Source: an uncultured Hungatella sp. (GTDB taxonomy: Bacteria > Bacillota > Clostridia > Lachnospirales > Lachnospiraceae). Taken from it: a stretch of DNA of 64,000 bases. A program made the translations under genes and the position numbers. The notes under the pieces are model-generated. The model did not search any database, was not told the DNA's origin, and worked only from the letters and a program-made list of their open reading frames with translations. Positions 5,803 to 45,260 of the stretch are shown one piece after another (positions within the stretch are counted from its first letter, which is position 1; every line of letters starts with the position of its first letter). The stretch lies in NCBI GenBank assembly GCA_910585645.1, contig CAJUFP010000002.1, forward strand, positions 23,170-87,169, read 5' to 3'.

Positions 5803-5806
5803 ATAC

Positions 5807-23550: not shown

Positions 23551-23600
23551 TAAAAAGAGGAAAGCTCAACCCTCACAAGTTAAGACTTCCCTCTTTTCAT
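23551..23600 (-). terminator. Putative intrinsic terminator after the zeta-like toxin gene
   Basis: Minus strand reads aaagagggaag...ctttcctcttttt. It is embedded in a larger inverted repeat, 23537-23547 / 23580-23590. Confidence 0.45.
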
Positions 23601-23665
23601 CAAATACTATGCCTTTTCCCATCCTACTTCATGACAAGCTTACACCACATAATCTGCTGCTCTGC

Positions 23666-24532: not shown

Positions 24533-24621
24533 ACCTCCTCATATCCAACAGCCATTCACCATACCACTTCTTAACCTATTATACACAAAACAGGGCCAAA
24601 TGAAAAGTACCGGTTAACATG

Positions 24622-27600: not shown

Positions 27601-28308
27601 CGTAAAATATCCAATGGGCAGCCATGAGGCCGAATCACTCAAAGAAATATCCCTGGACAGAGCGAAATAACACCCTTCATACCCGTCCACTTCCTCATTA
27701 GCCACGTTGTAGGCCAGGAGCTTTAAATCCTTGACAGAGTTGATCTGATAGGGATTCTCCTTAGTCCCCTCCCCATCAAAATGGTCGCTCATCTCCATGC
27801 CGCCCCAGATACTGGCCCTGCCAAGCGACATCACGGCATTGGAAGCCGTTGCCACCCGAAGTTCCGTCTCCGATTCCGTTTCCTCCGCCGCCTCTTTATA
27901 AGAACTGCCAAAAACAGCAGACCCTGGAATCCTCTCCCCTATGCCGTCCAAGGCCTCCTTTTCATCTGGTTCCCCTTCTTGTCCGGCTCCCGTCTTAGGC
28001 TCTGCCTGGGAAGGCGTGGCAGTCCTTACCGGATTCTTCCACTCCGGACTTCTGCCGCTTTCCTTTTCCCATTCTCCTTCTCTGTCGCTACCGCTGTCAC
28101 TATGCCCCGGCAGGCTGCCTGCCAAAATCCCATCCTGCCCCACATTCTCACCGGCATAGACACCACTTGTCCCTAAAACCAGTTCACTTCCATACACAAC
28201 ACCATTTCCCGCGATTCCCACCGCTGAAAATACCGGGCTCATGCCCATAGCCGCAATCAACACCCAGGCCGGCACCGCCGCCTGATATCTTGTCCTCTTT
28301 TTCATCAT
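24622..28308 (-). CDS. Large secreted surface protein: GLUG-motif region + Big_2 Ig-like domains + Ser/Gly linker + cell-wall-binding repeats
   Basis: Signal peptide. Repeated GG(I/V/L)(A/V/C)G...N GLUG-type units. Four VTVTTEDG/EAG-type Ig-like repeats. SSGGSSGGSSGG linker. C-terminal GWWYQY.../YYLNPVSDGTKG repeats. Confidence 0.7.
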   Translation of the reverse strand: MMKKRTRYQAAVPAWVLIAAMGMSPVFSAVGIAGNGVVYGSELVLGTSGVYAGENVGQDGILAGSLPGHSDSGSDREGEWEKESGRSPEWKNPVRTATPSQAEPKTGAGQEGEPDEKEALDGIGERIPGSAVFGSSYKEAAEETESETELRVATASNAVMSLGRASIWGGMEMSDHFDGEGTKENPYQINSVKDLKLLAYNVANEEVDGYEGCYFALSRDISLSDSASWLPIGYFTELGDSEPKPFKGNFDGQGYRVYNLKISDTTQDYAGLFGSLHGATVENLVVDGQVNARSKAGVLAGESNDSTIRNCSVKGQVRGTGVMGGVVGEAYDSAILECVNTAGVLGGTDTSGSEEAFAGGICGSAQGSFISDCTSDTTDSYSALYSEGYVGGIAGNIYETEVYNSYVEGKVGSTSADYIGGLVGRLQSGQVKNGRFAGTIGASTSSTLKTAGLFVGFIESGTVELGDDLAYLYTDSEDKYSLNPFGNKLTPQIRLEHHIGAYYSNQRDFSLYQMGGFTKQTSRYFYEELEEGVLGIGKENVHHVASSKTGDPVRGYLVSVPAIDHGKLSVLEAQNNFAKEIDWANPGAVAAGTKVLVYTSPVNQGEAEPPVYYELVPDSLMWTADDFDTKELIPANASEVAFTMPEENITISAQYRAMTNGVVLDKGELVFEVEQIRSGSRWNPQIGWKVTDPQRLTAAIIPDSAANKNVVWNVKDTDGSSTDIIKVDENGEVSVNQSAKWIQELIKAGVANQELYPSKKITTEAKDYATVTVTTEAGQKRASAFVTVDFRITDDTVVPVADVKLDQAELAFEITRTLEGDRRNPKESYTVTPSRRLYETISPEYADNKEVIWSPGDSDVLRVDQEGMVSARENAKWIGDLIEAEKEKNKENPYAKQEAAGSRSSYVTVTTKDGEKQAVCAVNLSFKTVDRTVVRVEKVSVNQAELNFSVEKVLTGSRTSPKVEYKVTGAQRIGAVVAPAEAQNKAVKYSVADSTVASVSADGAVTVKRDGKWILDLEAKDAANLAKNRYALSTAAGSKETVVTVTTEDGQKTAQCKVKVEFKTTDQTTRPGTSSGGSSGGSSGGSSSGRGSGSSYRGSSTASGGPGAVGQVQGSWKQDSTGWWYQYQDGSYPKACWKQLSYNGVLEWYHFDERGYMETGWFTDTDRHVYYLNPVSDGTKGRMVTGWNLIEGKWYYFNTVSDGTRGAMFVNRKTPDGYQVDGKGVWVQ

Positions 28309-31572: not shown

Positions 31573-31779
31573 TCATTTCCGTCCCAATTTCGTCTCTTTT
31601 ATATGAAACCCTTCAATACAACGCAAAAATGTTATGGACAATTCCTGAAATAAGTCCTCGCAAAACCGCCCTTCTATCATGGAACGGCTAATGAGTAACG
31701 GACGATACTGCAAGAACAGTTCCTCCTTCGCCTTCTCATTTCCCGATTTTGCCAGACGCAGCAATACTTCCGTTTCCAT
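31573..31779 (-). CDS. Small sigma-region-2-like / HTH protein of conjugative-transposon regulatory modules
   Basis: 68 aa. Overlaps the stop of the sigma-like gene. Position is analogous to Tn916-type orf7/orf8 pairs. Confidence 0.4.
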   Translation of the reverse strand: METEVLLRLAKSGNEKAKEELFLQYRPLLISRSMIEGRFCEDLFQELSITFLRCIEGFHIKETKLGRK

Positions 31780-32212
31780 TCTTTTTCCACTCCTTCCTTA
31801 TCTTTTTACGGGCATACGAATACGAGTCTGCAATCTTCTTCGGTTTCTGCCCTATAATATTACCAATCTCCACAAACGTAAGCTGTCGGAACGCTTTGGC
31901 AAACACCACTTGAAGCTCTAAATCCGTCAAAATATCCATACTTTTCCAAAGCCTCATATCCAGCCATTCCTTTAACTGCTGTCTGATCACTTCCGGTTCC
32001 CAAGAGACTCTTTCTATTTCTTCCATCCAGTCTGCCACACACGCCATATCTGTCTCCTCCAACTGGTATTCAACAATTTCCGTCTCCTTTGGCACCTCCT
32101 TCCAGGTATGCTCCTGCTCTTTTCTTAAATAATCCCTCCTGGAGCGCTCCACTGCCTTCTCCAGATATTTGGTAAAACGTCCCTTAACAAAATCTTCATT
32201 GGTTCCTTTCAT
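31736..32212 (-). CDS. Sigma-70 region-4-like transcription factor (Tn916 Orf7-like)
   Basis: LTDLELQVVFAKAFRQLTFVEIGNIIGQKPKKIADSYSYARKKIRK resembles the sigma-70 region 4 HTH. Confidence 0.55.
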   Translation of the reverse strand: MKGTNEDFVKGRFTKYLEKAVERSRRDYLRKEQEHTWKEVPKETEIVEYQLEETDMACVADWMEEIERVSWEPEVIRQQLKEWLDMRLWKSMDILTDLELQVVFAKAFRQLTFVEIGNIIGQKPKKIADSYSYARKKIRKEWKKNGNGSIAASGKIGK

Positions 32213-32518
32213 CTTCTCCTCCGGATATCAGATTTGCTTGATTTCCGAAGAATGCGGCGGACCGCGAACCCATTTTTTGATAACCACAGCTTTACTGGGG
32301 TATATAGTATGGTTTTATGAACAAAAAAGAGGCAGTACGTTTCTGCCCCCCTTACATAAAATTTTGTATATTCTGTTTTACTTCTTTTCCATATCTTCCA
32401 ATGTCTATGCGGTTATCTTTCAATTGTATCTATTATTACCCCTGATTTATAAAGGGTTATAGTTTATGTTGTTTCTGTTGATTTCCGTTTAAACTTAAAA
32501 GAAAAGGTGATAACTAAC

Positions 32519-32842
32519 ATGAAAGCTCCTGATCATAAACTTGGCAACCGAATAAAATCTGCCCGCAAAGCAAAAAAGCTGACCCAGGAAAAACTTGCTG
32601 AACAGATCAATATATCCACCAGCTACATAGCAGAAATCGAAAACAAAAGAACTATCCCAAGTTTTGAAATCATGTGTTCCTTATGTAAAATTTTGAATCT
32701 TTCCCTGGACAATATCATTTTTGATACGGAGTCCGACTCCATAAAGCAGATCAATCTGCTTTTAAGTCAATGCAGTGAGAAACAGCTTTCCGTTATCCAT
32801 GCCATGATTGAAGCCATGCTCCAGGCAGAAGCCAGCATATAA
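32519..32842 (+). CDS. XRE-family HTH transcriptional regulator
   Basis: LGNRIKSARKAKKLTQEKLAEQINISTSYIAEIENKRTIPS is a Cro/C1-type HTH. ATG at 32519 with an AAGGTGA RBS. Divergent from the sigma-like gene. Confidence 0.75.
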   Translation: MKAPDHKLGNRIKSARKAKKLTQEKLAEQINISTSYIAEIENKRTIPSFEIMCSLCKILNLSLDNIIFDTESDSIKQINLLLSQCSEKQLSVIHAMIEAMLQAEASI

Positions 32843-32991: not shown

Positions 32992-34044
32992 TCATGAAAG
33001 ACACCTTAATCTTTCTGAATCGCCACCTCCTTCCGTCTTCTCACACCTTTCAAAGTCCTTCCACCACCTTTTTGCCCCTTCTTCCTTTTTGCGATCCGTC
33101 AGCCCATAATTCGCCTTCAGATAATCTCCCAGATACCGGCTTACCTTTTCCGCCCCATAAGTATTCAAATGATCCCCCTCATCCCTGGAATCCCTGTCCC
33201 AATCTATATTCAGCTCCTTCTCCAAAAGATTCATATCCAGAAACGGAAGTTTCTTCTTGGCGGCATAATCACTCACCCCATTATGCCTCCTGTAATCCCA
33301 GTTTTTAGGAGTAGGAGTTCCCACTAACAGCAGATAAATCCCTTCCTTCCGGCACAGTTCCACCAGCCTGTCCGTCCAAAAGGTCACCGTACCCTTCAAA
33401 GCCTCCCTGTCCTCCGTTTTCACCATATAGGGACCGCCTTTATACGGCCGAATATCCCCGCTGGGCAAAAAACCTTTGTTGACATCCCTCCTTCCCTCAA
33501 ACGGCAGCCCCTTCCAGTCTCCCGCCGTCAGACCTTTCCACCGGTTATGGTACTGAACCATAGGAAAATAATATCTGGCCGTCCTCTCAATGGCAAGGTT
33601 CCACTCCCTCTGCCACTCCCTGCTGTGGTAAAATAAATCCGTTTCCAGAATCACCACCTTAGGCCTTTGCATTGTCAGCACCTTTTTCATCATATAATAA
33701 GCCTCCACAGCCCTCTGCCCAGACTGGCCGCACACAAAAGAGGTAATGCCATGGTTTTTCCATAGTACCATGGGAGAGACTGCAGAATGACTCTCACTGT
33801 CCCCAAGAACAATCACATCCAGAGAACCCTCCGGTTCCGCCATGACTCCCGCAGACGGGATATCCCTTCCCTCCATACCGGCCTCTGCCGTATTGGACTT
33901 TGGAGCCGTTACCACAGACCCGCCATAAAGAAGAAACACAAATATCCCCCAGAACACCACCATTCTCCCCATCCTTACTACCCTGTCTCTGTTCTCAAAA
34001 ACCACACCCACCTCCTGACAATCCATCTTTTCCGGGAAAAGCAA
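32992..34044 (-). CDS. DltD-like / SGNH-fold extracytoplasmic acyl(aminoacyl)transferase
   Basis: N-terminal TM anchor, GDSES block-I motif, and C-terminal GDHLN (D-x-x-H). Last gene of the Dlt-like operon. The exact start is uncertain (the track start is TTG). Confidence 0.6.
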   Translation of the reverse strand: MLFPEKMDCQEVGVVFENRDRVVRMGRMVVFWGIFVFLLYGGSVVTAPKSNTAEAGMEGRDIPSAGVMAEPEGSLDVIVLGDSESHSAVSPMVLWKNHGITSFVCGQSGQRAVEAYYMMKKVLTMQRPKVVILETDLFYHSREWQREWNLAIERTARYYFPMVQYHNRWKGLTAGDWKGLPFEGRRDVNKGFLPSGDIRPYKGGPYMVKTEDREALKGTVTFWTDRLVELCRKEGIYLLLVGTPTPKNWDYRRHNGVSDYAAKKKLPFLDMNLLEKELNIDWDRDSRDEGDHLNTYGAEKVSRYLGDYLKANYGLTDRKKEEGAKRWWKDFERCEKTEGGGDSERLRCLS

Positions 34045-34065
34045 TACTCCGGCACTTACCAGCCA

Positions 34066-35598
34066 TCAAAAATTTGCGTAGATCAAATCTACCGGCACAT
34101 ACCCTTCCCCATACGCGCCAAACACACAGATTCCAAGTAAAACCCCATAATATACGCCCCACCTAAAGGGCAGAGGCAGCCTTCCAACCTCCTGACGCAC
34201 ATCCTTTCCTCTCTCCAGCAGAATACTCACAAGAACCACCATCCCGATCATTACCCCTGTCACCAAAAAATCCATCCAGTCCAGTCCCAGCTTCATAAGG
34301 CTTCCGTCCCACATCTGAGAAAACTGCCATCCCTTTATCATAGACCAGAACATTCCGATTCCCTGCTTAAGTCCTTCTGCCCTGAAAAACAGTTCCCCTA
34401 TAACCACCAGAACCCAGGTACGCAGGATCTGGAACCCGGCAAACACCCTGCTGTTTCCCACAATGGGAATCCTGGCCTTCCACTTCTCCACCCAGGGTTC
34501 CACCCCAATAGACAAAAGAATCAGCGCAAAATAATACATTCCAAAAAACAGAAAGCTCCACCGTGGCCCATGCCACAGTCCGTTGCACAGCCATACGGGA
34601 AACAAAGCCCCTGCCGACACTCCAAGCCTTGCCAGGTACCGCCCTTTTCCTGACAACCTTCTGCCAAATTTCCTCAAAGCAGAAGACATAGAGACCGGGT
34701 AAAACATATAATCCTTAAACCAGGCTCCCAGCGTAATATGCCACCGCCTCCAAAACTCCGGCACAGACTTAGAAAAAAAGGGCTGGCGAAAATTTTCCGG
34801 CAGACAAATTCCAAAAATTTCCCCGCTTCCCGCCACCATATCCATACACCCCGAAAACTCCATGTACAGCTGAATTGTATAACAGCAGGCAGCAACGCCG
34901 ATCACCACACCGCTGTAGCTCTCATAATTTCCATACACGGTCTGAACCAGGATATTCAGCCGGTCCGCCACCACCATTTTTTTCGCCAGCCCCCATAAGA
35001 TTCTTTGTACCCCCTTCGTCAGATTCTCCCAGGTAATAGGCCGTCCCTCCCACAGCACCAGCCCTGTCTGTCCGTAACGGCAAATAGGGCCCTCCATGAT
35101 ACAGGGAAAAAAGGTCAAAAACAGCCCCAGCCTTTCAACCCCCCGTTCCGCAGGAATCCGCTTATACCACACATCCACAAGATACCCCACAGCCTGGAGC
35201 GTATAAAAAGAAATCCCTATGGGAAGCAGCGCGGGCACGGCAGAAAAAAAGGGGCCCATACCAAACAGTTGGAGCACACGGTTCCCATTGGCCGCCAGAA
35301 AACTCCCGTACTTCTTCCATACTAAAATGCCCAAAAGACCAGCCAGTCCCCACACCAGAGCCCCCCTTCTCTGCTTTTCCTCCTTCTCTCTCCCTGCCGT
35401 CTCCATCCATATCCCCACATCATGAATGAGCAAAACCGCCACAAGAGGATAAATCATCAGGGTCCCGCTGATACACCAGTAAAAAACAAGACTTGCCGCA
35501 AGCAGAATCCATGGACGAAATCTGACTCCCACAAGCTGATAGATCAGACAGACTGCCGGGAGAAACAAAAACAGATACAGCGCTGTATGATAAGCCAT
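34066..35598 (-). CDS. MBOAT-family membrane O-acyltransferase (DltB/AlgI-like)
   Basis: Polytopic membrane protein with the MBOAT His motif FWRRWHITLGAWFKDYMFYP. Confidence 0.8.
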   Translation of the reverse strand: MAYHTALYLFLFLPAVCLIYQLVGVRFRPWILLAASLVFYWCISGTLMIYPLVAVLLIHDVGIWMETAGREKEEKQRRGALVWGLAGLLGILVWKKYGSFLAANGNRVLQLFGMGPFFSAVPALLPIGISFYTLQAVGYLVDVWYKRIPAERGVERLGLFLTFFPCIMEGPICRYGQTGLVLWEGRPITWENLTKGVQRILWGLAKKMVVADRLNILVQTVYGNYESYSGVVIGVAACCYTIQLYMEFSGCMDMVAGSGEIFGICLPENFRQPFFSKSVPEFWRRWHITLGAWFKDYMFYPVSMSSALRKFGRRLSGKGRYLARLGVSAGALFPVWLCNGLWHGPRWSFLFFGMYYFALILLSIGVEPWVEKWKARIPIVGNSRVFAGFQILRTWVLVVIGELFFRAEGLKQGIGMFWSMIKGWQFSQMWDGSLMKLGLDWMDFLVTGVMIGMVVLVSILLERGKDVRQEVGRLPLPFRWGVYYGVLLGICVFGAYGEGYVPVDLIYANF

Positions 35599-35599
35599 C

Positions 35600-35830
35600 C
35601 TACTCCCCTTGCTTAAGCCGCTGCACCATATTCCATATGCTCCGGACAGAATTAAAATTGGCGGCCGTTACCTCTCCCGGCGAAATACGGATCTCAAAAT
35701 AATCCTCCAGTCTCCCGATGAGCTCCAGAACCGAAAAAGAATCCAGGATTCTCCCATCTATCAAATCCTCACAATTAATATCATCCACACCCGGCTCTAC
35801 CTGCCGTAAAATAATCCACACGTCTTCCAT
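35600..35830 (-). CDS. Acyl/aminoacyl carrier protein (DltC-like)
   Basis: 76 aa with the phosphopantetheine-attachment motif LDSFSVLELI. Stop abuts the MBOAT start. Confidence 0.75.
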   Translation of the reverse strand: MEDVWIILRQVEPGVDDINCEDLIDGRILDSFSVLELIGRLEDYFEIRISPGEVTAANFNSVRSIWNMVQRLKQGE

Positions 35831-35838
35831 AAAATCCT

Positions 35839-36004
35839 CCTATGCCAACTTTCCACTGAAATGGCAACCGTTCATACAGCCCGAACGGTTGGGACATCTG
35901 CCTATGAAAATCGCTTCGCGATGAGGCAGATGTCTTCCTCCTTTATGTTTCCATACGGCCAGCGCAGCAAGTGCACGGGCCTATGCCAACTTTCCACTGA
36001 AATG
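35839..36004. repeat. 25-bp perfect direct repeat flanking a 116-bp hairpin-rich insert
   Basis: cctatgccaactttccactgaaatg occurs at 35839-35863 and 35980-36004. Between the copies are hairpins caaccgtt/aacggttg and gacatctgcct/aggcagatgtc. The repeat is the 3-prime end of the decarboxylase gene. Confidence 0.85.
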
Positions 36005-37207
36005 CTCCTTTAATTTCCCATAATTTTCTCTTACAATAGGCAGATTCAGGCAATAAGTATCCATATGCCCTCTCACCTTCAAAAGCCCCCGCTCCGTACC
36101 CCATACCACCACAGCCGGAAGCTCCCTGCTCAAAAACACAGACATCCCCTCTGTCATGGAGTAAGCTCCTGTCCGTTCAAAAACCAGCAGATCTCCCGGA
36201 GACGCTGCCACAAGGGGCTGTTTCCTTGCCAGAATATCATTCATTGTACACAAAGCCCCGCAGATCTCCCACTCCTCACACGCCCCCTGGACGTCTTTTG
36301 GAAGCTTTCTCACATAGGGCTGTTTCATGGCCATGAGCTGCCCATCATAGTGCAGGTGATGTATCCCTCCGTCTACCATGGCATAGGATTCCCCTCCGTT
36401 CCTCTTTAACTCCTGTATCTCCGTCACATAATATCCGCAGGAAGCCGTCAGGAAACGCCCCATTTCAAATACCATCTTCCCCTGAAATTTCATGGAATCC
36501 ACACAGTCCCGAATCTCCTTTAAAAGCTCCTGTCCTCTGTCTTTCTCCCCCTGGAAATAATCCACAGGCAGCCCAGGCCCATACTCCAGATGTTCCATAT
36601 CATACCCCAGAGACTGCTCCATAGCTCTGCACAACTCATCCAGGTAAAGCAGCTCATGAACAATACGCTGGGCATTCCTTTTCTGTGTCCCGGAAAAAAA
36701 GTGGATACCCAGAAAATGAATCCACGGTTCTGTTTGGCACCCAGCAGCCATCTCCTCCAACTGTCCCACGGACATTCCAAACTGGTTCCTGCTGGTAAGA
36801 CGCAGCACCAGAGAAACCTTCCGTTTTTCCCTTTCTGCCAGGGCCCGCAGCATTTGAAACTGGGGAACCGATTCCACTGTAAAGACCGGAAGTTCTCCCT
36901 TTTCCCCCAAAATCTTTTCTATTTCCTCCTCCCTTTTCAAAACCCCGGACACAATGATCCGTTCCGGCAAAATTCCACAAGCCCTGCATATCCTGTACTC
37001 CCCATAAGAGCATGCCTCTATCCGCCCCAGCCCCTGAGGCAGAAACGGCACAAGAAACGGATTCGCCTTCATGGCATAGCACAGAGAAACCCTTTCCCCC
37101 AGTGCCTGCCCCGTCTCCCGGACCTTCCTGTAAAACTCATCTAAATCAAACAAATAAAATGGCGTGCCGTAACTAGCAGCTGCCTGAATCAAAACGCGGT
37201 CTTCCAA
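35981..37207 (-). CDS. Fold-type III PLP-dependent decarboxylase (Orn/DAP/Arg decarboxylase family)
   Basis: GTPFYLFD...SLCYAMKANPF (PLP-Lys), and the EICGALCTMND and ERTGAYS motifs. TTG start at 37207 with a GGAGGAG RBS, overlapping the adenylase gene end by 35 nt. Confidence 0.75.
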   Translation of the reverse strand: MEDRVLIQAAASYGTPFYLFDLDEFYRKVRETGQALGERVSLCYAMKANPFLVPFLPQGLGRIEACSYGEYRICRACGILPERIIVSGVLKREEEIEKILGEKGELPVFTVESVPQFQMLRALAEREKRKVSLVLRLTSRNQFGMSVGQLEEMAAGCQTEPWIHFLGIHFFSGTQKRNAQRIVHELLYLDELCRAMEQSLGYDMEHLEYGPGLPVDYFQGEKDRGQELLKEIRDCVDSMKFQGKMVFEMGRFLTASCGYYVTEIQELKRNGGESYAMVDGGIHHLHYDGQLMAMKQPYVRKLPKDVQGACEEWEICGALCTMNDILARKQPLVAASPGDLLVFERTGAYSMTEGMSVFLSRELPAVVVWGTERGLLKVRGHMDTYCLNLPIVRENYGKLKEHFSGKLA

Positions 37208-38720
37208 AACAGATCTCCTCCCTCATTCGATATTGTTCCAAACTGCCCCTGTCTATCTTTCCGTTTTTATTAAGAGGCATAAATTTCAACCGGATAAACT
37301 CATTGGGACACATATAAGCAGGAAGCCGTTCCCTACCCAGCCTGCGAAGCTCACCTGGTGAGGCAGTTCCCACATAGTAGGCCGTCAACCTCTTTGTACG
37401 GGAATCATACAAACAGCAAACCCTGTCCATCCCCTCCATACATCCCAGCTCCCACTCCACCTCCTCCAGCTCAATCCGGTGTCCCATCCGCTTGATCTGA
37501 TGATCCGTCCTTCCATCAAAACACAGCTGCCGGTTTTCATCATAATGCCCCATATCCCCAGTGCGGTAAATAATCCCTCCGCCCGGCTCCTCAAAAACAT
37601 TCCTCACAAACCGTTTCTCTGTCTCCTTCTTGTTGCGGTAATACCCCGAAGACAAAGCCTTTCCGCCCACACAGATTTCCCCGGTCACGCCAACCGCCTC
37701 AATTCTCCTGTCTCCCTCATCTGCCAGAAACACTTCCCGGTTGGAAAACGCTCTCCCAATGGGAATCACCCCATCCTCCGTCCCGTCCACACGATAATAA
37801 GTGCAGTTGCAGGTAATCTCCGTAGGACCGTACAGATTTACAAACTCTGTCTCCGGCAGCGCCTCCCTCCAAAGCTTCAAATGATAGAACGGCATAATCT
37901 CCCCGCTGAAAAAAATCTTCCGTATTTCTTTGGGAACCCTGTATTCCAGCCCCCTGGCAGCAGACACTACACACAGGGCAGAAGCAGCCCAGATCAGAAC
38001 TGTCACCTGATTTTCACAGAGATAATCAAGCAATGCCGGCGGCGTGGCAAACATGACGCTGGGAATCAGCACCAGCCTGGCCCCGCAAAAAACGGAAACC
38101 AGCAGATCCTTCACCGAAACATCAAAATCAAAAGGAGCCTGGTTTCCGATCACATCCTGCGAACCAAAAGAAAACGTGCGGATAAATTCCTCTCCAAACT
38201 CCACCGCAGCACCTCCGCTGACTGCCACCAGTTTGGGAACTCCCGTAGAGCCGGATGTAAACATCCCATACAGATAGTCCTCCGGCCTCATCTGCAGCCG
38301 GTAAAACCCAAGAACCTCCAGGTCAGCCGCTTTCTCCTTAATCTCCCCAAATCCCAAAACCCTTCCCGCAAATCCATCCTCCTTAAGCCGTCTTGCCAAA
38401 TCCCCTTCCGCAATCACCACATCCGCTTCCAGAAACTCCAAACGCTCCCTTATCCTTTTTTGCGGAAGTTCCGGATTCATGTACACATAAAAACAACCGG
38501 CATATGCCGCACCGAAAAACGCCCCAATGGTCTCAGACCGCTTCTCCATAAAAACCGGCACAGGGCTCCTCTGCCTGCACACCCTTGTAAGAAAGCTTCC
38601 CACCCTTCGGGAAATTTCAAGAAGTTCCCCAAAGGTGTAGCCCCGCCTTCCGTCATATACCGCCTCTTTCTCCGGGTATCGGAGCGCCGTCTCCTCCAAA
38701 TAATCTAAAACGGATTTCAA
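37173..38720 (-). CDS. DltA-like amino-acid adenylation enzyme (carrier-protein ligase)
   Basis: AMP-binding motifs FTSGSTGVPK, YGPTE and YRTGD, plus a DltA-like FDFDVSVKDL. TTG start at 38720 with a GAGGTGGA RBS. Confidence 0.8.
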   Translation of the reverse strand: MKSVLDYLEETALRYPEKEAVYDGRRGYTFGELLEISRRVGSFLTRVCRQRSPVPVFMEKRSETIGAFFGAAYAGCFYVYMNPELPQKRIRERLEFLEADVVIAEGDLARRLKEDGFAGRVLGFGEIKEKAADLEVLGFYRLQMRPEDYLYGMFTSGSTGVPKLVAVSGGAAVEFGEEFIRTFSFGSQDVIGNQAPFDFDVSVKDLLVSVFCGARLVLIPSVMFATPPALLDYLCENQVTVLIWAASALCVVSAARGLEYRVPKEIRKIFFSGEIMPFYHLKLWREALPETEFVNLYGPTEITCNCTYYRVDGTEDGVIPIGRAFSNREVFLADEGDRRIEAVGVTGEICVGGKALSSGYYRNKKETEKRFVRNVFEEPGGGIIYRTGDMGHYDENRQLCFDGRTDHQIKRMGHRIELEEVEWELGCMEGMDRVCCLYDSRTKRLTAYYVGTASPGELRRLGRERLPAYMCPNEFIRLKFMPLNKNGKIDRGSLEQYRMREEICFGRPRFDSGSC

Positions 38721-38752
38721 CCTTATCCACCTCTCTTACCTTTTCTAATGGT

Positions 38753-38786
38753 TCAGGCGGCATTCCTCTTAAGAAGTGCCGCCTGA
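38753..38786 (-). other. Intercistronic 10-bp perfect hairpin between the lipoprotein gene and the DltA-like gene
   Basis: tcaggcggca (38753-38762) pairs with tgccgcctga (38777-38786). No U-tract follows, so it looks more like a processing or stability element than a terminator. Confidence 0.5.
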
Positions 38787-38804
38787 TACCCCTTCCTATT
38801 TGCC

Positions 38805-39458
38805 TTAAGCTGCCGGTTTCCCCTTCTGGCCGTCCCCATCTTTCCCGCTGTTCTTGGCCTGTTTCCCATCGGATTTCTTCTCTGCCAGTTTCCTTTTCAG
38901 CTTGCTGTCCGACTTTTTCTGAGAAAGCCTTGTCTTTTCCCCATTCTCTTTCTTTTTATTGACTGCTGATTTCTTCCCATCCTTCTTGGTATCCCGTTCC
39001 TTTGCTCCCTCCGAAGCCTTAGGCGCATTATCTCCGGTCTGATCTTTGGACGGTTCCGTAGACGATTTCACCGCAGCATTGCCTGCCGGAGCTTTGGGAG
39101 CCGTCTCCTGAATTCCAGGTCCCTGGGCTGGCCCGGCTGCCGGACCCTTTGCCTCCTGCTTTGGCGCCTCTGCCTCCTTACCAGGACCTTCCACCGCCTT
39201 CACCGGTGCCTTGGCTGCCTTACCAGGCCCTTCCGCTGCCTTCACCTGCGCCTCTGTTTCCCCCTTCTCCTTCTTCTTTCCAGGCGCTTTCGTCTTATCC
39301 TTCTTCACTTTCTCCTTAGACGCCTTGGCCTGAACCGTTGTCTCTGTCTGGGTTTTTCCCCCTCCCTTCTTATCCTGAGGTGTACAGGCTGCAACAGACG
39401 CTGCTATAGCAGCTGCCATCATAAATACAGATACTCTTGCTAATCCTTTTTTCATCAT
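38805..39458 (-). CDS. Lys-rich low-complexity lipoprotein
   Basis: MMKKGLARVSVFMMAAAIAASVAAC lipobox. ATG at 39458 with a GAGGA RBS. The mature part is K/A/E/G/P-rich with EGPGK(A/E)A(K/E)AP repeats. Confidence 0.65.
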   Translation of the reverse strand: MMKKGLARVSVFMMAAAIAASVAACTPQDKKGGGKTQTETTVQAKASKEKVKKDKTKAPGKKKEKGETEAQVKAAEGPGKAAKAPVKAVEGPGKEAEAPKQEAKGPAAGPAQGPGIQETAPKAPAGNAAVKSSTEPSKDQTGDNAPKASEGAKERDTKKDGKKSAVNKKKENGEKTRLSQKKSDSKLKRKLAEKKSDGKQAKNSGKDGDGQKGKPAA

Positions 39459-39510
39459 TTTATATTCCTCGCTTTCTGAATTTTCAAAGTTCCTTTCCTT
39501 TGATGATTTC

Positions 39511-39564
39511 ATTCTAGCGATTGTTCCTTAATAAAACCTAAAAGACATCTTAACGATTCTGAAG
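39511..39564 (-). promoter_or_regulatory. Regulon promoter 1 (lipoprotein + Dlt-like operon): 4 x TTMAG array + -10 TAGAAT
   Basis: Coding strand reads cTTCAGaatcgTTAAGatgtcttTTAGGttttaTTAAGgaacaatcgcTAGAAT. The -10 lies 52 nt upstream of the start at 39458. Confidence 0.65.
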
Positions 39565-39678: not shown

Positions 39679-41094
39679 TTATTTTATTTGCTGCTCTCCT
39701 TCAGGAAACAGAATCCTGATTCGGTATATCCCACCTCCGGTCTCCTCCTCACAACTGCCTCCCATATCGCTCATCATAGCCCGCACATTTTCCAGGCCGA
39801 TTTTTGTGCTGGGAATCCCTTCCTGAAATTCTCTCACCCGATTGTGGATTTCAATTCCCACCATTCCTTTTTCATACACCGTTTTCAGATAAACCGGCTC
39901 CCCGGCATCCGCATATTTCACAAGATTCATGCCAAGGTTATCCACGATTCTTCCGATATAATCCATTCGGACCCGTATCTTCTCCCTTTTCCATTCCAGA
40001 TCCGCCTCTACCATGTATCCCTGATTTTCCAGGAACATAGCCATCTCCGAGAGACAGTCCTCAAAAACACTCTGAAACAGCCTGGGTTCTTCCAATATCT
40101 CTTCTTTCTTCCTGTCCCCAATCTGGCTGCATTCAAACAGACAATCGGACAGTTCCTTCATCTGCACTGCCTTGGCCATCATTTTCTTCAGATAGTAGTC
40201 CCTCTCCTCCTGGCTGTCACATACCTCAGACTGCATGACCTGTATGTAAACGGTCAATGCCGTAAGGGGCGTCCTCAGATCATGGGCCATCCCTACAATC
40301 AGGTTCTGGTTTGCCTGCCTCAATTCCTGTTCCTTTTCTATATTCTCTTTCAGAGACTGCCTCAGCTGATTTAAACCCTCTGCCAGCTCTGCCAGTTCAT
40401 CCTTTCCTTTTACCAGTATGGAGTGGTCCAGACATCCGCCCTCCATAATCCCGATCTCCTGATGCAGTTCCTGGATATAAGAAATCCTTTTTCGGACGCC
40501 CCAGATAAAACATACCAAAAAGACCAGAAAGCTGGCCAGAATCTCCCCAACCATAACATACATCTGATACCGGTAAGCAAATGCTCCTGTTAAGAATACC
40601 TCTGCTGTCCCATCAGCAAAAAGCACCTCATAATAGCTTTCCCGGTAATAGGGCACCTCCAGATCCTCATAAAAGTCCTCATTTTCTGTCTTATCTGAAA
40701 CATATACCAGCAAATCACCCCGGTAAATCTCCAAATACACAATGGAATTCTTTTTCACCCATGACGACAGCAGTGTACTGTCCGAAGTCCTGATTCCATT
40801 CTCAATCACATAATCCTGCAGCTCCTGAACCATATCTCCTTCCGCCTCTTCCAGATAAGAGGATTCTTCCAGATAACGGTCAAGCCCTCTGTCAGCCAAT
40901 GTCCCAAAAACACAAAAGAAAAGACCTGCGGTTATCCCACTGGCCAGGACCATGGCCACCAGCTCTCCTACCAGGCTCCATCTCCTGCCCTGAAACCGCC
41001 TTTTCCCCCATACTCTCCCTGTCAGATCACCCAATCCGATACCCCTTTCCCCACACGGTACAGATTCTCTTCGGTTCCTGGGGATCTTTCTCAA
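39679..41094 (-). CDS. Sensor histidine kinase (2 TM, extracytoplasmic loop, HisKA + HATPase)
   Basis: H-box MAHDLRTPLTAL and a C-terminal ATPase region. The track start overlaps the regulator gene by 68 nt. An in-frame TTG at 41034 (AAGGGG RBS, 8-nt overlap) is a plausible true start. Confidence 0.8.
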   Translation of the reverse strand: MRKIPRNRRESVPCGERGIGLGDLTGRVWGKRRFQGRRWSLVGELVAMVLASGITAGLFFCVFGTLADRGLDRYLEESSYLEEAEGDMVQELQDYVIENGIRTSDSTLLSSWVKKNSIVYLEIYRGDLLVYVSDKTENEDFYEDLEVPYYRESYYEVLFADGTAEVFLTGAFAYRYQMYVMVGEILASFLVFLVCFIWGVRKRISYIQELHQEIGIMEGGCLDHSILVKGKDELAELAEGLNQLRQSLKENIEKEQELRQANQNLIVGMAHDLRTPLTALTVYIQVMQSEVCDSQEERDYYLKKMMAKAVQMKELSDCLFECSQIGDRKKEEILEEPRLFQSVFEDCLSEMAMFLENQGYMVEADLEWKREKIRVRMDYIGRIVDNLGMNLVKYADAGEPVYLKTVYEKGMVGIEIHNRVREFQEGIPSTKIGLENVRAMMSDMGGSCEEETGGGIYRIRILFPEGEQQIK

Positions 41095-41731
41095 TCTTTA
41101 CCCGAAGCTTGCGTATATGTACCATAACCGTATTGTTAGAACCGTAAAAATAAGGCTCCTGCCATACGCTTTCATAGATATTCTGTGCGGAAAATATTTT
41201 ATTGGGGTATTGAATCAGAAGACGGAGAATCCGGTATTCAATTTCTGACAAATCCACCTCTTTTCCCTCCACTTTCACCTGGTTGCAGGAAACATCCAGG
41301 CTAATTTCCTTCCACTGTATCCAGGAAGCCTCCTCAATAGAACTTCCTGAATCCTTCCCCCGGTATACCTGGTATCTTCTCACAAGAGCCTTTACCCGCC
41401 CTAACAGTTCCCCGTAGGAAAACGGTTTTGGCAGATAATCATCCCCTCCTGCCATAAGCCCTAAAAGTTTATCCGACTCCCTGGCTTTTGCAGTCAAAAA
41501 CAGGATAGGCACATTGGAGAACTTTCTGATCTCCTCACAAGTCTTAATCCCTGATATTCCAGGCATCATAATATCCAGAATCACAAGATCTGTCTCCCTG
41601 CCCATCATCCCAAGAGCCTGACTGCCGGACTGTGCTTCCCTCACCTGAAATCCTTCACTTTCCAAAAGCACCCGGACACCCTCCCGGATATCCCCGTCAT
41701 CCTCTACCAGCAGAATCAATCCCTTCTCCAT
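41027..41731 (-). CDS. OmpR/PhoB-family response regulator
   Basis: Receiver domain LLVEDD...LDIMMPG...K, and a winged-helix output domain ...VMVHIRKLRVKIE...TVWGKGYRIG. Confidence 0.85.
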   Translation of the reverse strand: MEKGLILLVEDDGDIREGVRVLLESEGFQVREAQSGSQALGMMGRETDLVILDIMMPGISGIKTCEEIRKFSNVPILFLTAKARESDKLLGLMAGGDDYLPKPFSYGELLGRVKALVRRYQVYRGKDSGSSIEEASWIQWKEISLDVSCNQVKVEGKEVDLSEIEYRILRLLIQYPNKIFSAQNIYESVWQEPYFYGSNNTVMVHIRKLRVKIEKDPQEPKRICTVWGKGYRIG

Positions 41732-42301: not shown

Positions 42302-42856
42302 ATGCAAACAAAACCACAGATTACTCTGGTTCCCCTTTTAGACCAGGAAAAAGAATCATTTATCCATGATGTTCAGGCTGCTTTTAAAATAGCGGTTGAA
42401 AAAGAATGGGGAGATACCGGTGAGGAAGTCATACCAAGGCAGGATATTGAAGAAGCATTTCATGCTCAGGGGGCAGAAAGCTACCATATTGTACACGAAG
42501 GCCGGATTGTAGGCGGAACCGTACTTACTATTGACCCGGAGACCAACCATAATGAACTGTCCATTTTATTCATCAAAGGCAGCTGCCACAGCAGGGGCTT
42601 GGGATTTGCCGCCTGGCAGGCCATCGAAAATCTCCACCCGGAAACCGAAGTATGGGAAACCTGTACCCCATATTTTGAAAAACGCAACATCCACTTTTAT
42701 GTCAACAAATGCGGCTTTCATGTAGTAGAATTTTTCAACCCCTGTCACCCGGAGCCCGATTACCATGAGACCCAGGGACAGGACATTCCAGGCGGTGATT
42801 ATTTCCTGCGCTTTGAAAAGAACATGAAAGAAAAAACCAGTCTTCAGAATTGTTAA
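42302..42856 (+). CDS. GNAT-family N-acetyltransferase
   Basis: RGLGFAAWQAIE (acetyl-CoA P-loop-like Q/R-x-x-G-x-G/A) and NIHFYVNKCGF. RBS AGGAGG sits 8 nt upstream. Confidence 0.7.
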   Translation: MQTKPQITLVPLLDQEKESFIHDVQAAFKIAVEKEWGDTGEEVIPRQDIEEAFHAQGAESYHIVHEGRIVGGTVLTIDPETNHNELSILFIKGSCHSRGLGFAAWQAIENLHPETEVWETCTPYFEKRNIHFYVNKCGFHVVEFFNPCHPEPDYHETQGQDIPGGDYFLRFEKNMKEKTSLQNC

Positions 42857-42895
42857 GATTCCCTTCAGAAAACTTTCAGCTTTTCATGGGATAAT
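42843..42895 (+). promoter_or_regulatory. Regulon promoter 3 (TVP38-pssA-psd-PAP2 operon): pentamer array + extended -10
   Basis: TTCAGaattgTTAAGattcccTTCAGaaaactTTCAGcttttcatggGATAAT. Overlaps the GNAT stop codon. Confidence 0.6.
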
Positions 42896-43074
42896 GGCCG
42901 TAACGGAGAGAATCCAAACATTTTTAAAAAAGAAACCTGTTAAGAGGAGGTATATAATTATGCATAAAAATAAACTGATCGAACTGATAAAAAAACAAAT
43001 TCAAAAAGACAACAATAAGCAAACAGGGAGAGAAAAAAATCCCTCCCCCGCCGGTTTTCAGGGAGCCCCCCGTT

Positions 43075-43668
43075 ATGACGGATAAAGCCGGCTCTTTGTG
43101 GGAAACAGGCTGGAAGCGGATTACATCCATAGCCTTTCTGGCTGCCATGCTCTTCATCTCCATCCTGTTTATAAAAGCTTATATGCAGGGGCAGTTCCAT
43201 TCCCTTGACTCTCTCCGGGATTATATCAAGGGCTTTGGAATTCTGGCTCCCGCGGTCCTCACCCTGTTTCAAGCCTTCCAGGTAATTCTTCCGGTGCTGC
43301 CGGGATTCTTAGGCTGCGCTGTGGGCGCTGTGCTGTTCGGCGCCTCCGGCGGCTTCTGGTATAACTATATTGGAATCAGCACAGGCTCCATCATCGCTTT
43401 CTTCCTGGCCAGACAGTATGGAACAAGTCTTGTAGAGGCTTTATTTCCCGGAGAAAGCTATGGAAAATGGTCCAACTGGCTGGGAAAGAGCCGGTATTTT
43501 ACCCTGGCCTTATTTGCCGCCATTCTGCTGCCTCTGTTTCCGGACGATTATCTCTGCTATTTTTCCGGCCTCACCAAAATGAGCGCAAAAAAATTCATAT
43601 GGATTATCATTCTGGCAAAGCCCTGGTGCATTCTGGTTTACAGCCTTGCTTTCGCTGGTGTACTGTAG
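43075..43668 (+). CDS. TVP38/TMEM64 (DedA-related) family membrane protein
   Basis: Multi-TM protein with the motif GFLGCAVGAVLFG...FPDDYLCYFSGLT. A 41-aa ORF with a strong RBS (42960-43085) lies upstream in another frame. Confidence 0.65.
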   Translation: MTDKAGSLWETGWKRITSIAFLAAMLFISILFIKAYMQGQFHSLDSLRDYIKGFGILAPAVLTLFQAFQVILPVLPGFLGCAVGAVLFGASGGFWYNYIGISTGSIIAFFLARQYGTSLVEALFPGESYGKWSNWLGKSRYFTLALFAAILLPLFPDDYLCYFSGLTKMSAKKFIWIIILAKPWCILVYSLAFAGVL

Positions 43669-43717
43669 TCAAATATGCATGCCCGCCTGGCTCCTTGCCT
43701 GCGGGAATAAAAAATAA

Positions 43718-44365
43718 ATGAAGGAGAATAAAAAAATGTTACGCAAACATCTCTTGGGCTTTTATGATTACACCGTAATCCTCACATACGCAGGCACCCT
43801 GTCCGCGTTTCATGGAATCCTGTCTCTCATGAACGGGAGACCCAGACAGGCTGTCCTGTGCCTTATGGCCGCTGGCCTCTGTGACATGTTTGACGGAACC
43901 GTGGCCGCGACCAAAGACCGGAACCGTCAGGAAAAACGCTTCGGAATCCAGATTGATTCCTTAAATGATGTAGTTGCTTTCGGCGTCTTTCCCGCCCTCT
44001 TTGTATATATTATGTGCCAGGGAACCCCTTTTTCCGTTCTGGCCTCCTGCGCCTATCTGCTGTGCGCCCTGATCCGTCTGGCTTATTTTAATGTTCTGGA
44101 AGAAGACCGGCAGGACTCCTCATCCGAAAAACGGACCGAATACTTAGGTCTCCCTGTGACGGTTTCCGCTCTCATTCTCCCTGCTGCCTACGGATTCTGC
44201 AGTCTGGCCCCCGGCCTGAATCCTCACGTTTACTCCTTTGTCCTTGCCGCCATGGCCCTGCTCTTTGTGTCCCCCATAAGGATTCCAAAGCCCCGGCTTA
44301 AAGGTATCATCGGACTTGCCGCTGCCGGCACGGCTCTCTTTTTGGGAATGGTTCTGGAGGTGTAA
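43718..44365 (+). CDS. pssA: CDP-alcohol phosphatidyltransferase: phosphatidylserine synthase
   Basis: D-x2-DG-x2-A-x8-G-x3-D-x3-D motif (CDMFDGTVAATKDRNRQEKRFGIQIDSLNDVV). The start may be the ATG at 43736 (AAGGAG RBS). Immediately followed by psd. Confidence 0.75.
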   Translation: MKENKKMLRKHLLGFYDYTVILTYAGTLSAFHGILSLMNGRPRQAVLCLMAAGLCDMFDGTVAATKDRNRQEKRFGIQIDSLNDVVAFGVFPALFVYIMCQGTPFSVLASCAYLLCALIRLAYFNVLEEDRQDSSSEKRTEYLGLPVTVSALILPAAYGFCSLAPGLNPHVYSFVLAAMALLFVSPIRIPKPRLKGIIGLAAAGTALFLGMVLEV

Positions 44366-44369
44366 ACAC

Positions 44370-45206
44370 ATGGCAAAAGACCCTTTTTATGTGCGTTTTC
44401 TCTATGGAACCAAACCTGGACGCACTCTGCTGAAAACACTGGCCCGGCCCCTCTTTTCCAGGCGGGCCGCTTTATTTTTGGATTCCCCCTGGTCCCGGTG
44501 GCTGATTCCCTTATACATCAGGCTCCACCACATCCCCATGGGCTCCTATATTCCGGAACATTACCGTTCCTTCAATCACTTTTTCACCCGGAAAAGGAAC
44601 CATCTGCACATAAACCTGGATCTGGAACCCTCCCATTTCATCAGTCCCTGTGACGGATACTTAAGGGTACATCCTATTACCAGAGAACGCCGGTTTTGCA
44701 TCAAACACATAGATTACTCCCTGGAAAAGCTTCTCCGTGACCCAGTCCTGGCGGGCAGATACGAAAACGGCCTCTGCCTCATTTTCCGTCTGGCCCCCCA
44801 CAACTACCACCGCTACTGTTATCCCGACAGCGGCCTGGCAGTCAAACAGGTATCCATTCCCGGCCTTCTCCACTCCGTAAGGCCCGCTGCCTTAAAAACC
44901 CGCCCCGTCTTCCTGGAAAATGCCAGACAGTACACGATCATTGACTCCGAACATTTCGGTCTTCTGGTCCAAATGGAAGTAGGTGCTCTCCTGGTAGGAA
45001 AAATCCATAATCACAGCGACAGGCTTATTATAGATCGAGGTACGGAAAAAGGCTACTTTGAATTTGGCGGCTCCACCATACTGATACTTGCAGAACAGGG
45101 AATCCTGGATATAGATCCACCTATCCTGAATGCCTCCCAAAAAGGTCTGGAAACCACCGTAACTTATGGAGAAAAAATCGCCGCCAGAAGGCTGGAGCGT
45201 GTTTGA
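44370..45206 (+). CDS. psd: Phosphatidylserine decarboxylase proenzyme
   Basis: Self-cleavage motif FGGSTI near the C-terminus and the length fit Psd. ATG at 44370 with GGAGG 9 nt upstream. Confidence 0.75.
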   Translation: MAKDPFYVRFLYGTKPGRTLLKTLARPLFSRRAALFLDSPWSRWLIPLYIRLHHIPMGSYIPEHYRSFNHFFTRKRNHLHINLDLEPSHFISPCDGYLRVHPITRERRFCIKHIDYSLEKLLRDPVLAGRYENGLCLIFRLAPHNYHRYCYPDSGLAVKQVSIPGLLHSVRPAALKTRPVFLENARQYTIIDSEHFGLLVQMEVGALLVGKIHNHSDRLIIDRGTEKGYFEFGGSTILILAEQGILDIDPPILNASQKGLETTVTYGEKIAARRLERV

Positions 45207-45260
45207 AAATTCACTGATCATCCTTAAATATGCAGACAAAAAAGAAAGGGGAAAACCTTC

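Follow-up and report, generated by a model that had tools for sequence, protein, structure and literature searches.

Why should an operon that otherwise resembles the Dlt system for D-alanylation of the cell envelope carry a gene for a pyridoxal 5'-phosphate (PLP)-dependent decarboxylase, when Dlt itself has none? The question is raised by a locus of an uncultured Hungatella sp. (GTDB lineage Bacteria; Bacillota; Clostridia; Lachnospirales; Lachnospiraceae), which lies in a stretch of 64,000 nucleotides (nt), here called the window (NCBI GenBank assembly GCA_910585645.1, contig CAJUFP010000002.1, positions 23,170 to 87,169, forward strand). At window positions 32992-39458, an initial annotation had described six minus-strand genes, encoding, in order, a Lys-rich lipoprotein, a DltA-like adenylase, a decarboxylase, a DltC-like carrier protein, a DltB-like MBOAT acyltransferase, and a DltD-like SGNH protein. 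All six genes, with their motifs, were found at these positions by listing of open reading frames (ORFs) and by Pfam and NCBIfam searches. Five of them, from the adenylase to the SGNH gene, form a conserved cassette. Its homologies make it fairly probable that the cassette loads an amino acid onto the carrier, decarboxylates it there, and transfers the product to an envelope molecule through the MBOAT-SGNH pair.

The arrangement is not a matter of chance, because the same five genes recur in other genomes. Relatives were sought by a scan of one genome per GTDB species, the 80 best loci were surveyed in detail, and the presence of core genes was scored with hidden Markov models built from the family. 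Relatives of the decarboxylase were found in at least 542 species genomes, and all five core genes (adenylase, decarboxylase, carrier, MBOAT, and SGNH) were present in 71 of the 80 species-representative loci. Four of the other nine loci were cut by contig ends, two held only the triad of adenylase, decarboxylase, and carrier, two had no detectable carrier, and one had no detectable SGNH gene; adenylase and carrier were both encoded in 75 of the 80. The gene order adenylase-decarboxylase-carrier was kept across the surveyed loci. The concern that the architecture might occur in no other genome can thus be set aside, and the decarboxylase is an integral part of the cassette, being linked to the other genes throughout and at times fused to the carrier. 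The gene content, its conservation, the homologies, the invariant residues, and the decarboxylase-carrier fusion described below are all direct observations.

The host taxa were Lachnospiraceae, Oscillospiraceae/Ruminococcaceae, Clostridium cadaveris, Erysipelotrichaceae, and the actinobacterial genera Collinsella and Gordonibacter (Coriobacteriia). Since the flanking genes vary from genome to genome, the five genes appear to travel as a module, and by this comparison the cassette is evidently self-contained and horizontally mobile. Look-ups anchored on the SGNH gene of Blautia hominis and of another abundant lineage retrieved the same cassette. The SGNH family comprised 3553 clusters (50% identity) at E<=1e-30 among 1.84 billion representatives, and one member, P0150, was indexed in 454 blocks of the sequence collection.

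The decarboxylase (35981-37207, minus strand) is a fold-type III PLP enzyme of the BtrK/SbnH kind, with the Pfam domains Orn_Arg_deC_N and Orn_DAP_Arg_deC and the motif YAMKANPF. Among solved structures, its best matches were both BtrK entries of the PDB (131.7 bits, against 96 for the best LysA), which are named L-glutamyl-[BtrI carrier protein] decarboxylase. The PLP lysine, K47, and Cys320 were invariant, and a Cys is present at the latter position in BtrK, SbnH, and LysA as well. The family has DGG(I/M)HH (with YxGQ), and DGG(I/M)HH is also found in BtrK, where the LysA counterpart is AGMNDLIRP; LCT, shared with BtrK and SbnH, stands where LysA has ICE. Both motifs with which LysA binds diaminopimelate (DAP), RPxLY and CE[ST]GD, are replaced, and these are the segments that we take, from the LysA structures, to contact the non-reacting end of DAP. 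The analogy with BtrK that was drawn at the outset is therefore borne out by the closest solved relative and by the BtrK-like sequences that replace the LysA motifs. A score of 167 bits against the lysA equivalog TIGR01048 (cut-off 297.9), together with the replaced motifs, argues against a housekeeping LysA.

A different role for the PLP enzyme would be that of a racemase supplying a D-amino acid to a variant of ordinary Dlt D-alanylation. This reading could draw on a weak match to Ala_racemase_N (E 2e-4, below the cut-off), on the name "alanine racemase" that NCBI gives to some homologues, and on a gene logic that overall resembles dltABCD. The racemase domain is nevertheless matched far less well than either decarboxylase domain, every one of the nearest solved structures is a decarboxylase, and the invariant Cys320 aligns with the Cys of BtrK, SbnH, and LysA. 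Furthermore, all four Dlt equivalog cut-offs are missed, the SGNH protein has no DltD match, and the adenylase pocket is unlike the one that we assume for DltA. We rejected the racemase on domain content and closest structures and regard it as very improbable.

If the decarboxylase works on the cargo of the carrier, a fusion of the two proteins would be expected, and such fusions exist. P0013 and P0014 are two distinct sequences of 479 amino acids (aa) from two independent metagenome assemblies (L087:6001-7440 and L088:1912-3351), in which decarboxylase and carrier are joined in frame, the Ser motif of the carrier included. Their loci read adenylase-fusion-MBOAT-SGNH, without a separate carrier gene. 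In the window, the adenylase and decarboxylase genes overlap by 35 nt. This overlap, the fusions, the kinship with BtrK, and an invariant lysine in the adenylase pocket (Lys239, see below) together favor decarboxylation on the carrier, and we propose that the enzyme acts on a carrier-bound substrate. The characterized relatives behave in this way: VinO needs prior thioester formation (PMC11284099), CtaF cannot decarboxylate free substrates (PMC7183216), and a review describes BtrK, CtaF, and FlvO as acting on Glu or Asp tethered by the side chain (PMC11350588).

The operon might instead co-express a supply enzyme, so that a free metabolite is decarboxylated first (DAP to Lys, Asp to beta-alanine, or Glu to gamma-aminobutyrate [GABA]) and the product is then loaded. 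Fold-type III decarboxylases mostly do use free amino acids, the lysA model does give 167 bits, and some homologues are annotated as diaminopimelate decarboxylase. That score is, however, under the lysA cut-off of 298 bits, the substrate motifs of LysA are replaced, and an invariant Lys239 would be unexpected in an adenylase for Lys, beta-alanine, or GABA. The fusions also speak against free substrates, as do the inactivity of the characterized relative CtaF on free substrate (PMC7183216) and the naming of BtrK for carrier-bound Glu. Decarboxylation before loading is accordingly improbable in our estimate, and the conversion of DAP to Lys before loading, one of the two routes first suggested for this locus, is disfavored by Lys239, the fusions, the lost LysA motifs, and the behavior of CtaF.

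What, then, would be loaded on the carrier? The adenylase (37173-38720, minus strand; FTSGSTGVPK, YRTGD) is a stand-alone enzyme of the nonribosomal peptide synthetase (NRPS) type and the predicted carrier loader, scoring 192 bits with Pfam AMP-binding and 295 bits with TIGR01733. Its scores with the DltA models were 224 bits for TIGR01734 (cut-off 559.85) and 240 bits for NF003417 (cut-off 476), and in the PDB it matched NRPS adenylation (A) domains with up to 188 bits per domain, against 153 for DltA. A 327-bit match to LgrA, considered as a clue to Gly specificity, was discarded: it adds up the scores of two A domains (137 and 188 bits) and reflects ordinary NRPS-level similarity.

The specificity positions, read in GrsA numbering with the core motifs as anchors, were DVKIFSLCNK in the window. 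D235, V236, K239, S301, C330, N331, and K517 were invariant in 83 of 83 homologues, which are 38-54% identical overall, and the remaining three positions vary conservatively, giving the family pattern DVK(I/T/V)(L/M/F)SLCNK. Because seven pocket positions are invariant in 83 homologues, the family evidently has one substrate throughout. The pocket is unlike the code that we assume for DltA. Together with a score far below the DltA cut-off (224 versus 560 bits), this supports the earlier suggestion that the group transferred is not D-Ala. Among specificity codes, a Lys at position 239 marks a Glu-activating domain, and its invariance here suggests that the loaded substrate keeps a free carboxylate. 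The residues beside it (I278, L/M299, and L322) are bulky, which suggests a shallow pocket that favors Asp. Invariant V236 and S301 agree with the 236/301 signature of beta-amino-acid adenylases; enzymes of this group (VinN type) have a beta13-beta14 loop that is one residue shorter, bulky residues at 236/301, and basic residues at 330/331 (PMC11253843).

A PLP enzyme that removes an alpha-carboxylate needs a free alpha-amino group and a free alpha-carboxylate, so if the enzyme acts on the carrier, the tether must be at another carboxyl. The candidates that we derive from this are Asp held by its beta-carboxyl, which would yield a beta-alanyl group; Glu held by its gamma-carboxyl, which would yield GABA; and DAP held by one centre, which would yield a lysyl group. 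Sequence does not distinguish between Asp, Glu, and DAP here, and we infer a ranking only. A beta-alanyl group from Asp is our best guess, a tentative one; a lysyl group from meso-DAP seems unlikely by comparison, and a gamma-aminobutyryl group from Glu somewhat more so. The last is less favored because a GABA thioester tends, by our own reasoning, to lactamize, and no protecting enzyme is encoded.

The carrier (35600-35830, minus strand; PP-binding) is a 76-aa protein whose phosphopantetheine attachment site is Ser31 in LDSF, and this Ser was invariant in 73 of 73 relatives. It scored 25.7 bits with the DltC model NF003464 (cut-off 68), and other acyl carrier protein models scored higher.

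The adjoining MBOAT acyltransferase (34066-35598, minus strand; 510 aa; Pfam MBOAT; RWHITL) indicates how the acyl group might leave the carrier. H287 (in RWH) and H343 (in WHG) were invariant. By sequence, the protein matched DltB alone in the PDB (70 bits); by fold, too, DltB came first, with a TM-score of 0.68-0.73 on DltB. With the DltB equivalog TIGR04091, the score was 146.6 bits (cut-off 375). Across the family the MBOAT is 500-541 aa long, about 100 aa more than DltB (about 400 aa). The AlphaFold2 model places two extra C-terminal transmembrane helices at aa 441-462 and 476-494, followed by a disordered tail (503-510), and the window protein ends in LIYANF (nt 34069-34086). This C-terminal motif, x-(I/M)-Y-A-x-F, has a Tyr that was invariant in 75 of 75 relatives; the terminal Phe was present in 74 of 75 and replaced by Tyr in one. 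In DltBXD and PatAB, the Tyr of an FXYXXF "acyl shuttle" takes up the acyl group at the MBOAT and passes it to the Ser of the SGNH protein; the motif resides on a separate microprotein, DltX, in Dlt and is fused through two additional helices in PatA, AlgI, and WssH (PMC12148441). The cassette MBOAT evidently has a fused Tyr shuttle of the PatA/AlgI type. It is therefore not a DltB equivalent, given the fused shuttle, the two extra helices, and a score below the DltB cut-off, although DltB is still its closest fold.

No conserved DltX-like small ORF was present among ORFs of at least 25 aa within 1.5 kb upstream of the adenylase, with all loci clustered. The upstream clusters examined as DltX candidates were the kinase, frame-shadow ORFs, and the Lys-rich lipoprotein.

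The SGNH protein is a membrane-anchored extracytoplasmic protein on the minus strand (ORF 32992-34044; likely true start 33972) with the motifs GDSES and GDHLN. It had no Pfam, NCBIfam, or PDB sequence match, DltD models included. An AlphaFold model built with 36 homologues as input (pLDDT 92.9) showed an N-terminal transmembrane helix and an SGNH/GDSL fold. A Foldseek search with this model ranked GDSL acylhydrolases and TesA first, with DltD (6pfx, 6o93) at ranks 16-27 and TM-scores of about 0.31-0.38. Ser83 (GDS) and His292 (GDH) were invariant among its relatives. The motifs that had led to its description as DltD-like are thus present, but membership in the DltD family is not supported, as no DltD model matched; we propose that it is the final transferase, a functional analogue of DltD/PatB. 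The top match of the SGNH profile, P0361 (924 aa), is a tandem duplication of the SGNH domain in which GNS/GHS and GNH replace GDS and GDH, so that only the Ser and the His are strictly kept.

Taken together, these features suggest the following route, for which we infer the chemical steps, substrate, acceptor, and physiological role. The adenylase would activate an amino-dicarboxylic acid and thioesterify it to the carrier, leaving the alpha-amino/alpha-carboxylate end free. The BtrK-like decarboxylase would then remove that carboxylate on the carrier, giving an omega-aminoacyl thioester. Using His287, the MBOAT would move the acyl group from the phosphopantetheine arm to the Tyr of its own xIYAxF tail at the outer face, and the tail would hand it to Ser83 of the SGNH protein. 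The SGNH protein would finally esterify an acceptor, for which a teichoic-acid-like polymer, another glycopolymer, peptidoglycan, and a glycolipid are candidates. The modification, an amine-bearing ester on an extracytoplasmic acceptor, would add positive charge, and the cassette would often be under the control of a dedicated two-component system.

Several observations weigh against this route, or against a beta-tethered Asp as its substrate. The preference of the decarboxylase family for BtrK over LysA is real but moderate: a profile of 85 members scored 190 bits with BtrK, 169 with LysA, and 167 with SbnH. The numbering of the specificity positions rests on a GrsA segment, though this segment reproduces the published code DAWTIAAICK. 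The beta13-beta14 loop of the adenylase is ungapped relative to the alpha-amino-acid domains LgrA A1 and A2, so that the hallmark of VinN is absent, and positions 330/331 are Cys/Asn, not Lys/Arg as in VinN; K239 may substitute for this basic pair. The canonical Asp235 and Lys517 are kept, which fits an alpha-tethered substrate, and hence DAP, at least as well as a beta-tethered Asp. No teichoic-acid genes were linked to the cassette in the flanks surveyed. Finally, loci L007 and L060 encode adenylase, decarboxylase, and carrier with no adjoining MBOAT or SGNH gene; the neighbors include a class III aminotransferase gene in L007 and ribosomal protein genes in L060. Possibly, these genomes encode the transfer proteins at another site; alternatively, the triad may supply a different pathway.

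The adenylase features bear most directly on a variant in which the same machinery loads meso-DAP alpha-wise and removes its distal carboxylate on the carrier, so that a lysyl group reaches the polymer; were the D-centre tethered, this could be a D-lysyl group, that is, a D-aminoacyl group made without a racemase. D235, K517, and the unshortened loop are what an alpha-amino-acid domain should have. Position 239 is the acidic-residue site of Lys-specific domains, so K239 could bind the distal carboxylate. The decarboxylase is derived from the family of DAP decarboxylases, and the Arg that it has lost from RPxLY presumably binds the carboxylate of the non-reacting centre, which would here be the thioester. 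On the other hand, I278, L/M299, and L322 are large, where the pockets of Lys-type domains have small residues; the Glu of CE(S/T)GD, which we take to contact the other amino group in LysA, is also lost (Thr321 stands instead); and free Lys is abundant, so that such a detour needs a special rationale. We consider the DAP variant unlikely, though worth retaining beside the on-carrier decarboxylation of Asp.

The triad-only loci are also relevant to whether the product is an envelope decoration at all. The cassette might make a secreted or membrane-bound small molecule, such as an aminoacylated lipid head group, with the SGNH protein as a releasing hydrolase or a lipid acyltransferase. All known triads of adenylase or ATP-grasp enzyme, carrier, and decarboxylase come from natural-product pathways, L007 and L060 hold the triad alone, and genes for VTT/DedA, PssA, and Psd lipid proteins adjoin the cassette in the window, L085/L086, L006, L008, and L089. 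Such lipid genes are found in a minority of loci, however. No polyketide synthase (PKS), NRPS, condensation, or transacylase genes were linked to the cassette in the flanks surveyed, and MBOAT-SGNH pairs with a Tyr shuttle are so far known only for the acylation of envelope polymers (PMC12148441). A small-molecule product therefore seems improbable to us.

In the window, the lipid genes are part of a group at 42302-45956 on the plus strand, divergent from the two-component system, which encodes a GNAT acetyltransferase, a VTT/DedA protein, a PssA-like CDP-alcohol phosphatidyltransferase, a phosphatidylserine decarboxylase, and a PAP2 phosphatase. VTT-PssA(-Psd) genes stand directly beside the cassette in L006, L008, L085/L086, and L089, and VTT alone in L087. 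The lineages with lipid genes were the window, L085, Lachnospiraceae M18-1, Sporofaciens, and Blautia hominis, and most loci were without them. They may be part of a co-regulated membrane-charge program or may point to a lipid acceptor.

How does envelope aminoacylation by on-carrier decarboxylation relate to known systems? The logic that the initial annotation called Dlt-like is present in full: as in DltABCD, a stand-alone adenylase would load a small carrier, an MBOAT would move the acyl group outward, and a membrane-anchored, extracytoplasmic protein of SGNH fold would act last. A two-component system also stands beside the operon, as dltRS does beside the dlt operon of Streptococcus agalactiae. 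Unlike Dlt, the cassette includes the PLP decarboxylase, its proteins all miss the Dlt equivalog cut-offs and its adenylase pocket differs from that of DltA, no DltX microprotein was found while a Tyr shuttle and two helices are fused to the MBOAT, and the SGNH protein, of about 320 aa, lies outside the DltD family.

An MBOAT with two extra C-terminal helices and a Tyr hexapeptide is shared with PatA/PatB, AlgI/AlgJ/AlgX, WssH/WssI, and PatA1/PatB1, and so is a distinct SGNH partner that acts outside the cytoplasm through a catalytic Ser (PMC12148441). The non-Dlt MBOAT-SGNH pathways use acyl-coenzyme A without a carrier protein (PMC12148441); in contrast to the PatAB type, whose donor is acetyl-coenzyme A, the cassette has genes for adenylase, carrier, and decarboxylase, implying an aminoacyl donor. 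By sequence, the cassette appears to work like Dlt and PatAB while being a member of neither as currently defined.

The donor side resembles BtrJ/BtrI/BtrK, CtaD/CtaE/CtaF, VinN/VinL/VinO, and FlvN/FlvL/FlvO, in each of which a fold-type III decarboxylase accompanies a stand-alone carrier and an ATP-dependent loader. In butirosin, closthioamide, and macrolactam biosynthesis, these triads turn Glu or Asp, held on the carrier, into a thioester of the GABA or beta-alanyl type (PMC11350588, PMC7183216, PMC11284099); CtaDEF and FlvNLO take Asp to beta-alanyl, and BtrJIK takes Glu to GABA. As in Vin and Flv, the cassette loader is an adenylation enzyme, unlike the ATP-grasp loaders of Btr and Cta, and it differs from VinN in having neither the shortened loop nor K330/R331. 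These four systems are cytoplasmic and feed PKS, NRPS, or transacylases, whereas the cassette output would go to an MBOAT-SGNH export pair. The cassette thus looks like a hybrid of a Dlt-type donor, decarboxylation of the Btr/Cta/Vin type, and MBOAT-SGNH transfer of the PatAB type.

The best NCBIfam match of the decarboxylase was TIGR03099 (171 bits), and the adenylase scored 155 bits with TIGR03098. These models describe an exosortase-A-associated ligase and PLP decarboxylase of proteobacterial exopolysaccharide loci, likewise an uncharacterized pair in the setting of a surface polymer. Both scores fall far short of the cut-offs (478 and 592 bits), neither exosortase nor PEP-CTERM genes were found at the cassette, and no linkage of that pair to MBOAT-SGNH is known. 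A search with the MBOAT for cousins lacking the decarboxylase was uninformative: the 120 matches listed were all at least 47% identical, with distant contexts out of view. No description of the cassette was found in the literature, in keeping with the initial remark that no characterized system has this composition, although subscription papers were mostly outside the coverage, and this absence is not proof.

Among the surveyed loci, ten (L012, L018, L034, L040, L054, L070, L077, L079, L080, and L084) represent a second subtype. Its triad has the same adenylase specificity positions. The MBOAT of this subtype has diverged (about 35% identity) and ends in GGFIYAQF, and its SGNH protein is a remote homologue (HHalign probability 99%, 21% identity) in which GSSHG replaces GDSES. 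The two subtypes may serve different acceptors.

The cassette also has a candidate regulatory system. Upstream of the cassette in the window are minus-strand genes for a sensor histidine kinase (39679-41094), with two transmembrane helices, an extracytoplasmic loop of about 115 aa, and HAMP and HisKA domains, and for an OmpR-type response regulator (41027-41731; Pfam Response_reg and Trans_reg_C). A co-oriented homologue of the response regulator, up to 68% identical, stood beside the cassette in 39 loci, and a histidine kinase homologue was directly beside it in 37, at a median distance of 51 bp. When the flanking ORFs of 84 loci were clustered, the two-component genes were the only recurrent neighbors, co-oriented in about half of the loci. 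The response regulator is likely the regulator of the cassette, and the frequency of the two-component system suggests induction by an envelope signal. The dlt operons of other Firmicutes are induced by envelope signals. Genes for an amidase, an MBL-fold protein, AIM24, an aminotransferase, and ABC and MFS transporters, considered as partners in the same clustering, reflected clade synteny only.

A terminator-like hairpin (39667-39649) and a promoter-like site (39597-39570), both consensus matches only, lie between the kinase and lipoprotein genes. The Lys-rich lipoprotein (minus strand; ORF 38805-39512; likely start 39458, an internal start at MMKKG) has a VAAC lipobox and a low-complexity mature part with 24% Lys and a net charge of +22, and it matched no Pfam or NCBIfam model. 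It had been counted as part of the operon, but it is clade specific, with a similar protein upstream of the adenylase in only 6 loci; considered both as a core component and as an acceptor, it was rejected as core for this reason.

The tight packing described for these genes was confirmed for adenylase and decarboxylase, for carrier and MBOAT (1-nt gap), and for MBOAT and SGNH (21-nt gap). It does not extend to decarboxylase and carrier, which are separated by 150 nt; the gap between lipoprotein and adenylase is 84 nt. The 150-nt structured spacer (35831-35980, minus strand) holds a 141-nt insert. On either side of the insert stands one copy of a perfect direct repeat of 25 nt (35839-35863 and 35980-36004), in which the decarboxylase gene has its 3' end duplicated. 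The spacer RNA is predicted to fold into several hairpins (-57.6 kcal/mol, z = -3.1), and an Rfam scan of the window from 32 to 42.5 kb, spacer included, gave no family match. The insert is also present in L085, a relative that is 89% identical, where the repeats have diverged; in the Hungatella locus compared, the insert is absent, and the decarboxylase and carrier genes overlap instead.

Other features of the window concern the setting of the cassette. A gene for an XRE repressor (32507-32842, plus strand) lies beside minus-strand small ORFs (31736-32212 and 31573-31779), and the L085 equivalent of the smaller ORF carries HTH_16; this layout recalls what we take to be the orf9/orf7/orf8 regulatory region of Tn916. 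Farther along lie genes for a sortase (53234-54046), a type IV secretion system coupling protein (54314-56344), DUF6017 and DUF6100 proteins, and a TraG/VirB4-like ATPase (60353-63184). An integrative conjugative element may carry the cassette or lie next to it.

Very large surface proteins are encoded at 10355-28308 (minus strand), among them a 4050-aa ORF with 12 SpaA prealbumin-fold repeats (10355-22507) and a 1228-aa protein with Big_2, GLUG, and choline-binding repeats (24622-28308). Between these two lie genes for a transglutaminase-like protein that is choline-binding (22568-23467) and for a zeta-toxin-like kinase (23666-24346). In L087 and L088, too, proteins with choline-binding repeats are encoded on the flanks of the cassette. 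A low-GC island at 4693-8091 (minus strand; 30-37% GC, against about 50% elsewhere) encodes a SMODS/DncV-like nucleotidyltransferase, a SMODS-associated NUDIX protein, and a TIR-domain protein, and looks like an antiphage defense locus similar to a cyclic-oligonucleotide-based antiphage signaling system. The GC skew was strongly negative across the window (-0.2 to -0.48 per 2 kb) except at about 42-44 kb, and nearly all long ORFs were on the minus strand, a strand bias typical of Clostridia.

In the textbook view, Gram-positive bacteria rely on D-alanylation by Dlt to adjust the charge of their surface, their resistance to antimicrobial peptides, and signaling to the host. Among MBOAT-SGNH pathways, Dlt has been described as the one with a carrier protein (PMC12148441). 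If our reading is correct, the cassette would be a second carrier-dependent pathway, with a chemistry distinct from that of Dlt and with beta-alanyl, gamma-aminobutyryl, or (D-)lysyl from meso-DAP as candidates for the group added. It would bring on-carrier decarboxylation, so far known only from antibiotic biosynthesis, to the cell surface, and it would allow the use of carrier-protein donors by MBOATs to be studied in a natural system that has no DltX. The predicted modification, so far undescribed, would belong to dominant gut commensals of humans and animals, including Blautia, Roseburia, Lacrimispora, Hungatella, Mediterraneibacter, and Collinsella. We put at about even the chance that gut Clostridia, Erysipelotrichaceae, and Coriobacteriia possess, in this cassette, a second carrier-dependent pathway of envelope aminoacylation, in which a non-alpha or non-alanine cationic acyl group would be made by decarboxylation on the carrier, exported by a self-shuttling MBOAT under the control of a dedicated two-component system for envelope stress, and used by these abundant commensals to set surface charge and resistance to cationic peptides of the host.

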